Source of the DNA: Escherichia coli
GTDB lineage: Bacteria; Pseudomonadota; Gammaproteobacteria; Enterobacterales; Enterobacteriaceae
Assembly: GCF_011045215.1 (NCBI RefSeq)
Contig: NZ_CP049201.1
DNA: 64,000 bases
Direction: 5' to 3' (one strand)
How positions within the stretch are numbered: the stretch's first letter is position 1; every line of letters starts with the position of its first letter. The position numbers are program-made. Of this stretch, positions 1-3,000 are shown piece by piece.

Positions 1-3000
1 AAGATAAACGGCAGGAGATAATATCCTGCCGTTTTTTATTTATGCTGATTCGTCAATATCGAGACGGGCGAGGAAATTGCGAATTCCTTCACGTGACAAA
101 AATTGCGCGACTTTTTCCTGCTCAATGTCTGTCATATTATCTATCGCGTTGATGATTTGTCGATACGCCGGGGCGCGTGCTCCAGGAGCGTATTCAGCAA
201 TTCTCTCTTCAGCTTCCATCAACATTGGTGTGTTATGGAACGCAGGCGTGTTCTGAATAAACTCGCAAACTTGCGTATCGACCAGAATAAGTCTGGCACG
301 ACCGCCTTTCACGCCGGGAAATTTTTCCGTTTTCCAGCCTTTTTCTCTGATCCAACGGTTAACAGTTTGTTTAGCCACACCGAGGCATTCAGCCAGTTCT
401 TCGGTGGTCATTTTATTGCGTAATCTTTTCATATTATTTGCTATCGCGAATCCCTAAGCGTTGTAACAATCCGATAATCCCTTCCCGCAGAAGCAAGGAT
501 GTAAACTGTTTTTGTTCAACTGGCGTCATCTCTTTCGCCAGTGTCACCAGCAATACTTCAAGCGGCGCATCACCAGAAAGGGCAGGCGCTTCTCCCTGAC
601 CTTCTGGACGTTCAGCATTACGAATATATTCACGAACCTGTTCATTGACGTGAACCAGTCGGGCTTTGCCACCCTGGACGCCTGGTTTTGGTGACGTCGT
701 CCAGCCTTCCTTGCGTACCCATTTATTAATGGTCTGGCGGCTATAGCCGGTCAGTCTGGCAAGTTCATCTGGCGTCATCCTCTCCTTGAACATAACAATT
801 CCCTGAATGTATGTGGGTCTATTAGTAGTTCATTTTATAGCACCACTTTACAGGAAACCGTGACATGAATAACTACTGAATGCGAGCGGTTTTCCAAAAT
901 TGTTCATTTGCCTGATTTTTCAGCGATTGAAACTACACGCTGCAATTTGCCGTTGACACATTCGGGCGGAATTCATATGATGCCGCCCGTCAACTCGACA
1001 AGCTTTACGTGACGGGGCTATAGCTCAGCTGGGAGAGCGCTTGCATGGCATGCAAGAGGTCAGCGGTTCGATCCCGCTTAGCTCCACCAAATTTCCAACC
1101 CTCGCTGCAAAGCGGGGGTTTTTTGTCTCTGCTTTTTGCCGCTTTTGTAATACAGTCTACGTCCGGGTTAGTGCCGCCTGGTGAAAGCATCATTGGATGA
1201 AAAGTCGGCAACAGGATGGCCCCTGTTTGCTTCGCAATGCGAATAAACTTATTATTTGTGTGCCTGAAAACCCCGATCAGTGAGAGTAGTGTACTCATGT
1301 TTGTGGAGCATAACCTGATAAAAAATATCAAGATATTCACACTAGCGTTTACGCTCACCGTGGTACTTATTCAGCTATCCCGTTTTATTTCGCCACTTGC
1401 CATTATCCATTCCAGTTATATCTTTCTGGCGTGGATGCCACTGTGCGTAATGCTGTCAATCTTGTTTATCTTTGGCTGGCGCGGTGTCGTTCCCGTTTTA
1501 TGCGGGATGTTTTGCACCAATCTGTGGAACTTTCATCTCTCTTTTTTACAGACTGCGGTCATGCTCAGCAGCCAGACGTTTGTCGTGTTATGTGCCTGCG
1601 CAATATTACGCTGGCAGCTGGGGACGCGTTGGCGTTATGGATTGACCAGCCGATATGTCTGGCAACGTCTGTTCTGGCTTGGTTTGGTGACGCCGATCGG
1701 CATCAAATGCAGCATGTATCTTGTGGGGAGCTTCTTTGATTTCCCGCTAAAGATATCCACCTTTTTCGGCGATGCGGATGCCATTTTCACGGTCGTTGAT
1801 TTGCTAAGCCTTTTCACCGCGGTGCTGATTTACAACATGCTTTTCTACTATCTCACTCGCATGATTGTAAGTCCCCACTTTGCGCAGATATTGTGGCGCA
1901 GGGATATCGCTCCGTCGTTGGGCAAAGAGAAACGCGCATTTACCTTAAGCTGGCTGGCAGCGTTAAGCGTGCTGCTACTTCTGTTGTGCACACCTTATGA
2001 AAACGACTTTATTGCCGGTTACCTGGTACCCGTTTTCTTCATCATCTTTACCCTCGGGGTCGGTAAGCTTCGCTATCCGTTTTTAAATCTCACCTGGGCT
2101 GTTTCAACACTTTGCCTTCTGAATTACAACCAGAACTTTTTGCAAGGGGTGGAAACCGAATATTCGCTGGCATTTATTCTCGCGGTGCTGATTTCCTTTA
2201 GCGTTTGCCTGCTCTATATGGTGCGCATTTATCATCGCAGTGAATGGCTTAATCGCCGCTGGCATTTGCAGGCGCTGACCGATCCGTTAACGCTCCTGCC
2301 CAACTTTCGTGCGTTGGAACAAGCGCCGGAGCAAGAGGCGGGCAAGAGTTTTTGCTGCCTGCGCATTGATAATCTTGAGTTTATGAGTCGTCATTACGGG
2401 TTGATGATGCGCGTTCACTGTATCCGATCAATTTACCGTACGCTGCTGCCATTGATGCAGGAAAACGAAAAGTTGTATCAATTGCCGGGTAGTGAACTGC
2501 TGTTAGTGCTGAGCGGGCCGGAAACGGAAGGGCGACTCCAGCATATGGTTAACATCCTGAATAGTCGGCAAATTCACTGGAACAATACCGGGCTGGATAT
2601 GGGCTATGGTGCTGCCTGGGGGCGTTTTGATGGAAATCAGGAAACCTTGCAACCCTTGTTGGGGCAGTTAAGCTGGCTGGCGGAGCAATCCTGCGCACAT
2701 CATCATGTGCTGGCGCTGGATAGCAGAGAGGAGATGGTTTCCGGGCAGACCACTAAACAGGTGCTATTGCTGAATACCATTCGCACGGCGTTAGATCAGG
2801 GTGATTTGCTGCTCTACGCCCAGCCAATTCGCAACAAAGAGGGTGAAGGTTATGATGAGATCCTCGCGCGACTGAAATATGACGGCGGCATTATGACCCC
2901 GGATAAGTTTCTGCCCCTTATTGCTCAGTTTAATCTTAGCGCGCGTTTTGATTTGCAAGTGCTGGAATCCTTGTTGAAGTGGCTGGCAACACACCCTTGC

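Follow-up and report, generated by a model that had tools for sequence, protein, structure and literature searches.

Does a lone tRNA-Ala(GGC) gene between yfeC and pdeA in an Escherichia coli genome mark a gene copy that was lost, a copy that was never gained, or a fault of assembly? We addressed this question in a 64-kb stretch of E. coli DNA (the window), in which an earlier note had seen a single such gene, with its own promoter and terminator, at a position where it expected two tandem copies in K-12.

The tRNA-Ala(GGC) unit of the window and its K-12 counterpart

ARAGORN predicted exactly one tRNA-Ala(GGC) gene in the 64 kb, at 1014-1089 on the plus strand; the only other tRNA gene in the window is tRNA-Arg(CCT) at 44374-44448. 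The Rfam model RF00005 matched 1014-1086 with 63 bits, compared to a gathering score of 29, and was covered in full (model positions 1-71). The anticodon GGC occupies positions 34-36 of the tRNA, as reported by ARAGORN and as can be read directly in the sequence (...CTTGCATGGCATGCAAG...), and the gene begins with GGGGCTA and ends with TAGCTCCACCA, with CCA encoded. In the predicted fold the acceptor stem has seven pairs, from 1-72 through 7-66, and G3 stands opposite T70 (U70); a G3:U70 pair in the acceptor stem is the identity element for alanyl-tRNA synthetase. The minimum-free-energy fold of the isolated tRNA was not better than that of shuffled sequences (z = -0.81), which is usual for tRNAs and carries no weight against the gene, the relevant tests being the covariance model and ARAGORN. 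The window gene belongs fully to the alaW/alaX tRNA family. The locus is laid out as follows, with gene names taken from K-12 and from THO-010, an E. coli genome with a single copy at this position.

40-432, minus strand: yfeD open reading frame
434-793, minus strand: yfeC, the left flank, reading away from the tRNA; a 119-aa open reading frame that is yfeC in THO-010 (same coordinates) and in K-12
953-981, plus strand: sigma-70 promoter-like site, with -35 TTGACA at 953-958, a 17-nt spacer and -10 TATGAT at 976-981
982-1013, plus strand: 5' leader from the -10 hexamer to the mature tRNA, starting with the G+C-rich GCCGCCCG; the same as the K-12 alaW leader
1014-1089, plus strand: tRNA-Ala(GGC) gene, 76 nt, with CCA and G3:U70 (ARAGORN, Rfam); sequence equal to K-12 alaW and alaX
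1014-1094, plus strand: remaining copy of an 81-bp perfect repeat (tRNA plus AATTT), from comparison with the K-12 repeat
1097-1130, plus strand: intrinsic terminator-like hairpin (1097-1120) and T run; the alaX-side terminator of the K-12 unit
1297-3486, plus strand: pdeA (yfeA), the right flank; an open reading frame that is pdeA at 1297-3486 in THO-010 and also pdeA in K-12

The promoter-like site has 11 of 12 consensus matches and is the single one in 794-1296, where 0.7 would be expected in shuffled sequence. It is identical to the K-12 sequence upstream of alaW and corresponds to the putative promoter on the alaW side of alaWX in K-12. The leader would be processed by RNase P, as in tRNA biology generally. 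Downstream of the gene, the terminator-like hairpin has 10 pairs, 6 of them G-C, and a loop of 4, followed by TTTTGTCTCT; it is the sole such structure found by the consensus scan in 794-1296, and its region is identical to K-12 downstream of alaX. ARAGORN, Rfam and the consensus scan therefore agree with the earlier note on a single tRNA-Ala(GGC) gene with its own promoter and terminator between yfeC and pdeA, and the span given there, 953-1125, is correct in its coordinates and fits the stretch from the promoter (953-981) through the terminator hairpin (1097-1120). The window thus has the position, the upstream promoter and the downstream intrinsic terminator of an alaWX unit, but one gene in place of two tandem genes, and the 39-bp spacer that would separate them is absent.

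We aligned 794-1296 of the window with the yfeC-pdeA interval of K-12 MG1655 (NC_000913.3), which holds alaX (b2396) and alaW (b2397), both tRNA-Ala(GGC). The earlier note was correct in expecting two tandem copies in K-12, and the refuting case that it named, a single K-12 copy at this locus, is excluded. The alignment contains one clean gap of 115 columns and is ~99% identical elsewhere. A script found two exact matches of the window 76-mer in the K-12 interval, 115 bp apart, and identity between the two K-12 copies runs 5 bases past the tRNA. The perfect direct repeat is therefore 81 bp long and recurs with a period of 115 bp. When one period was taken out of the K-12 sequence in silico, the product differed from the window only by 5 SNPs and one 1-base indel, all in the flanks. 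The missing segment, comprising the 39-bp spacer and one gene, is exactly one period, and in the longer allele perfect direct repeats lie at its two ends, the form that a tandem contraction takes; the two genomes do not differ in promoter region, leader, 76-nt tRNA, trailer or terminator. What remains in the window joins the alaW promoter and leader to the alaX trailer and terminator, which is what a deletion between the repeats would leave. The joint should lie somewhere inside 1014-1094, which is as finely as it can be placed.

We also considered W3110 as a single-copy strain, from a published table that names only alaW (PMC4678842), and rejected it on its RefSeq record, which has two tRNA-Ala genes.

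Several further features were observed on either side of the unit. The longest pdeA open reading frame starts with the ATG at 1216 and encodes 756 aa, and the RefSeq start at 1297 gives 729 aa; the 27 additional codons (1216-1296) overlap the part of the intergenic region that is most divergent between haplotypes. IS186C (insL3) of K-12 MG1655 is absent from the pdeA-nupC intergenic region of the window (3487-3535). Between dsdA and argW (38815-44374) the window carries a sucrose-utilisation csc locus (cscR, cscA, cscK and cscB in the annotation of matching genomes), at a position occupied in K-12 by dsdC/dsdX and the cryptic 10-kb prophage CPS-53. An 8-kb query from the csc region was covered to at least 80% in 1,486 of 5,426 complete genomes, and the csc locus is a known variable island at argW. 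The yfc fimbrial operon (55075-61700) is only about 82% identical to K-12 and includes an intact 883-aa usher open reading frame at 55915-58566; yfcU is annotated as a pseudogene in K-12. Near yfdF, BLAST segments overlap by ~110 bp in K-12 (2463268-2463380) around a ~100-bp unaligned stretch of the window (47488-47586), which suggests a small repeat or rearrangement, and the adjoining 3 kb is only 95.7% identical to K-12.

Copy number in E. coli and other Enterobacterales

We determined the copy state of the locus in 5,426 complete RefSeq E. coli genomes. The 503-nt interval cannot separate the states when used as a query, since overlapping pieces join to give 100% coverage for one- and two-copy genomes alike. 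The queries used were specific to each state: an 89-nt alaW-spacer-alaX junction, a 176-nt single-copy span (leader, tRNA and trailer; window 964-1139), which falls on two partial places in two-copy genomes, and a 195-nt three-copy span (spacer-tRNA-spacer). The junction was present in 5,293 of the 5,426 genomes (97.6%), and the single-copy span matched at full length in 132. Full-length matches to the three-copy span came from 51 genomes annotated with three tRNA-Ala genes, among which the record of BL21(RP) looks anomalous. Together, junction and single-copy matches (5,293 + 132 = 5,425) make up all genomes with any match.

One copy: 132 genomes (2.4%)
Two copies: about 5,240 genomes (96.6%), by difference
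Three or more copies: about 51 genomes (0.9%)
No match: 1 genome

Among the matches listed, the 176-nt query had one match per chromosome in 59 of 60 single-copy genomes, indicating that tRNA-Ala(GGC) is encoded by one gene genome-wide in those strains. The one-copy allele, though rare, is already on record: 132 complete genomes, EDL933 among them, have been deposited and annotated with it. Full-text literature searches found no publication on alaW/alaX copy-number polymorphism and no census of this kind, and alanine tRNAs are not mentioned in PMC9981150.

Assembly errors may account for some of the one- and three-copy records in the census. Four laboratory-strain assemblies with neighbouring accession numbers are all three-copy. 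The BL21(RP) record (NZ_CP084683.1) has a single-copy match at 3262869-3263044 and an odd two-piece match to the three-copy query at 4490856-4490999, annotated 'tRNA-Gly', and BL21 derivatives have one, two or three copies depending on the assembly, through either real drift of the laboratory strain or assembly noise. In strain Z0117EC0005, a 50,485-bp sequence labelled as a plasmid (NZ_CP098226.1) bears a three-copy tRNA-Ala(GGC) array at 23571-23765, and its chromosome also has three copies; the plasmid array may stem from misassembly or from duplication of a piece of the chromosome. The O127:H6 genome NZ_LT903847.1 matched only 36% of the junction query, at 2188982-2189013, yet has two annotated tRNA-Ala genes, which suggests that its spacer has diverged or been altered.

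The direction of change was examined in outgroups with a search for a tRNA end, a gap of 20-50 nt and a tRNA start through the anticodon, taking one genome per species, which returned at least 120 loci. Among the matches listed, the E. coli 76-mer occurs in two exact copies at 106 of 120 Enterobacterales loci, in three at one locus (Serratia marcescens) and in four at three loci (three Edwardsiella species), with spacers of 30-56 nt in the tandem loci. Carriers of the tandem pair include Escherichia albertii, Salmonella enterica subspecies, Citrobacter, Klebsiella and Enterobacter, and further Pectobacterium, Dickeya, Brenneria, Xenorhabdus and Providencia. Judged from this distribution, the tandem pair is the ancestral state, older than E. 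coli, and the window state is a loss. The earlier note had left it open whether the strain lost a copy or never gained one; because the pair predates E. coli, occurring in at least 106 of 120 Enterobacterales species loci and in 97.6% of complete E. coli genomes, loss is the reading to retain. We also observed that spacers are near-identical within each Edwardsiella and Serratia array, and that array size differs between genera too.

To place the copy states on their chromosomal backgrounds we compared the flanks of the array, 950 nt on the left and 1,200 nt on the right, in 13 sequences with 82 variable columns. MG1655 (two copies), MC1061 (one) and UMNF18 (one) have identical flanks, as do Sakai (two), EDL933 (one), 2017C-4109 (one) and Z1834 (three, with two identical spacers), and annotations confirm one, two or three tRNA-Ala genes in the genomes compared. 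The one-copy state occurs on 8 distinct haplotypes among the 11 single-copy sequences sampled. Copy states thus vary on identical as well as on unrelated backgrounds, the homoplasy that tandem-repeat contraction produces, and the reciprocal expansion is seen in the about 51 genomes with three or more copies, which have identical spacers. The presence of states one, two and three on identical flanks indicates that the array contracts and expands repeatedly. Three separate assemblies of EDL933 are single-copy, as is ATCC 43894, so at least the EDL933 case is no accident of assembly.

Single-copy O157:H7 EDL933 (NZ_CP008957.1), K-12 MC1061 (NZ_CP195014.1), KO11FL, UMNF18 and THO-010 are 100% identical to the window over the 176 nt and, like it, have one annotated tRNA-Ala between yfeC and pdeA, but they differ from it in flanking haplotype, with 10 to 63 differences over about 2.15 kb. 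These differing haplotypes argue that most of these one-copy alleles arose in independent events rather than as one allele passed on by descent. THO-010 is nearest to the window (10 differences) and has some local alleles in common with it, and the two might share their deletion by descent or recombination. The 503-nt interval matches O157:H7 at 99.7%; we rejected an O157:H7 affinity of the window, as over 12 kb the best match, at 99.2%, is with unrelated strains, and there are 49 differences from O157 in the flanks. The locus is mosaic. In the four O157:H7 loci inspected, a gene of the IS609 / InsQ-TnpB family adjoins yfeD, where K-12-like strains have gltX directly.

Probable contraction between direct repeats and its alternatives

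We consider it probable that the alaWX unit was cut from two genes to one by misalignment of its repeats, with a lower tRNA supply as the likely result. The ancestral array would have consisted of promoter, alaW, 39-bp spacer, alaX and terminator. Misalignment of the two 81-bp repeats, whether through template switching or slippage in replication, unequal exchange between sister chromosomes or single-strand annealing, would remove exactly one 115-bp period and leave a chimeric but fully normal unit, in which a single tRNA gene stands between the promoter and leader of alaW and the trailer and terminator of alaX. Each transcript would then yield one tRNA-Ala(GGC) rather than two. The loss of exactly one period, the presence of perfect repeats 39 bp apart, the reciprocal expansions and the recurrence on clonal backgrounds all point to misaligned pairing. 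The earlier proposal of recombination between the repeats is well supported in this respect, since the loss equals one 115-bp period of an 81-bp perfect repeat and three-copy alleles occur on the same haplotypes. The molecular pathway itself (slippage, crossover or annealing) we can only infer, because none of these leaves a distinguishing scar.

There are precedents in E. coli for such behaviour. Direct repeats of 101 bp undergo deletion and expansion without RecA, through template switching behind the fork or slippage, and do so more frequently the closer the repeats lie (PMC7145654). These tetA repeats, from the Lovett/Cox laboratories, resemble alaWX in being close repeats of ~100 bp with both deletion and expansion products, RecA-free in that setting, but they are engineered plasmid or chromosomal reporters, whereas the alaWX events are natural and their pathway is putative (PMC7145654). 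The glyVXY array likewise consists of identical tandem tRNA genes, in three or four copies among E. coli strains, though it concerns another tRNA at another locus (PMC4539685). Copy-number differences in tandem tRNA arrays, of which glyVXY is an example, are a recognised phenomenon.

A loss in the assembly rather than in the cell is the alternative that deserves most attention: the strain would have both alaW and alaX, and the assembler would have merged the identical 81-bp repeats. It is at short perfect repeats such as this one that short-read graphs collapse, a de Bruijn or consensus collapse here would yield an identical sequence, and copy counts vary among assemblies of nominally the same laboratory strains (one, two and three for BL21). 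The window genome may moreover be a draft, its best matches among complete genomes reaching 99.2% over 12 kb and 99.6% over 8 kb. We nevertheless regard an artefact as unlikely, given that genuine one-copy alleles exist (the three EDL933 assemblies and ATCC 43894), that the allele is present in 2.4% of finished genomes and that the window is contiguous across 64 kb without another sign of collapse. Short-read assemblies are not trustworthy for copy number at this 81-bp repeat. Far less credible still is an ancestral single copy, in a lineage that never acquired the duplication seen in K-12. It would account for the bare single-copy state and nothing more, and we hold it to be extremely improbable, because a tandem pair with identical tRNA occurs across Enterobacterales (E. 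albertii and Salmonella among them) as well as in 97.6% of E. coli, and because one-copy alleles lie on many unrelated haplotypes that also bear two copies.

Gene dose and selection

With contraction of the array as the preferred reading, tRNA-Ala(GGC), the decoder of GCC and GCU, is likely at roughly half gene dose in this strain. GCC accounts for ~27% and GCU for ~16% of alanine codons, together about 43% (PMC4539685). A reduced supply of the tRNA, along with any effect on fitness, would be a deduction from the gene count. The cmo5U tRNA-Ala(UGC) would give partial backup, and the cmo5U tRNA is described as reading all four alanine codons inefficiently (Nasvall et al. 2007, as cited in PMC11480407). 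In that work, alaWX is treated as a single transcription unit, and its complete deletion is viable; growth of the deletion strain in minimal medium was classed as 'very impaired', 530 genes were differentially expressed, and the UGC alanine tRNAs did not rise in compensation (PMC11480407). As loss of the complete unit slows growth in minimal medium, half the dose might have a small effect on growth or on codon-specific translation.

The loss could also be real and favoured, instead of a product of neutral or slightly harmful drift, for example if niches that are poor in nutrients or allow only slow growth reward a smaller tRNA-Ala(GGC) pool. Losses exceed gains (132 genomes versus about 51), and the one-copy state is common to several porcine ETEC isolates. 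The mechanism alone predicts a bias towards loss, however, and loss of the complete unit is harmful (PMC11480407), and we find selection for the reduced dose quite improbable; the low, scattered frequency of 2.4% fits recurrent mutation under weak purifying selection. There is a slim chance that alaWX is a naturally tunable dosage locus whose one-copy alleles are kept by niche selection, instead of being transient, slightly harmful mutations. If this were true, lineages could adjust their supply of the alanine tRNA that reads GCC and GCU by switching frequently from two copies to one or to three.

Taken alone, the one-copy variant matters little; the observation is correct but ordinary, and the variant, present in 132 complete genomes, is not special to this strain. 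Its wider meaning is modest: it shows that tRNA gene counts vary even between sublines of K-12, BL21 and O157:H7, and that the census provides a natural example of contraction and expansion in a short tandem array, with about 2.4% of genomes at one copy and 0.9% at three or more.
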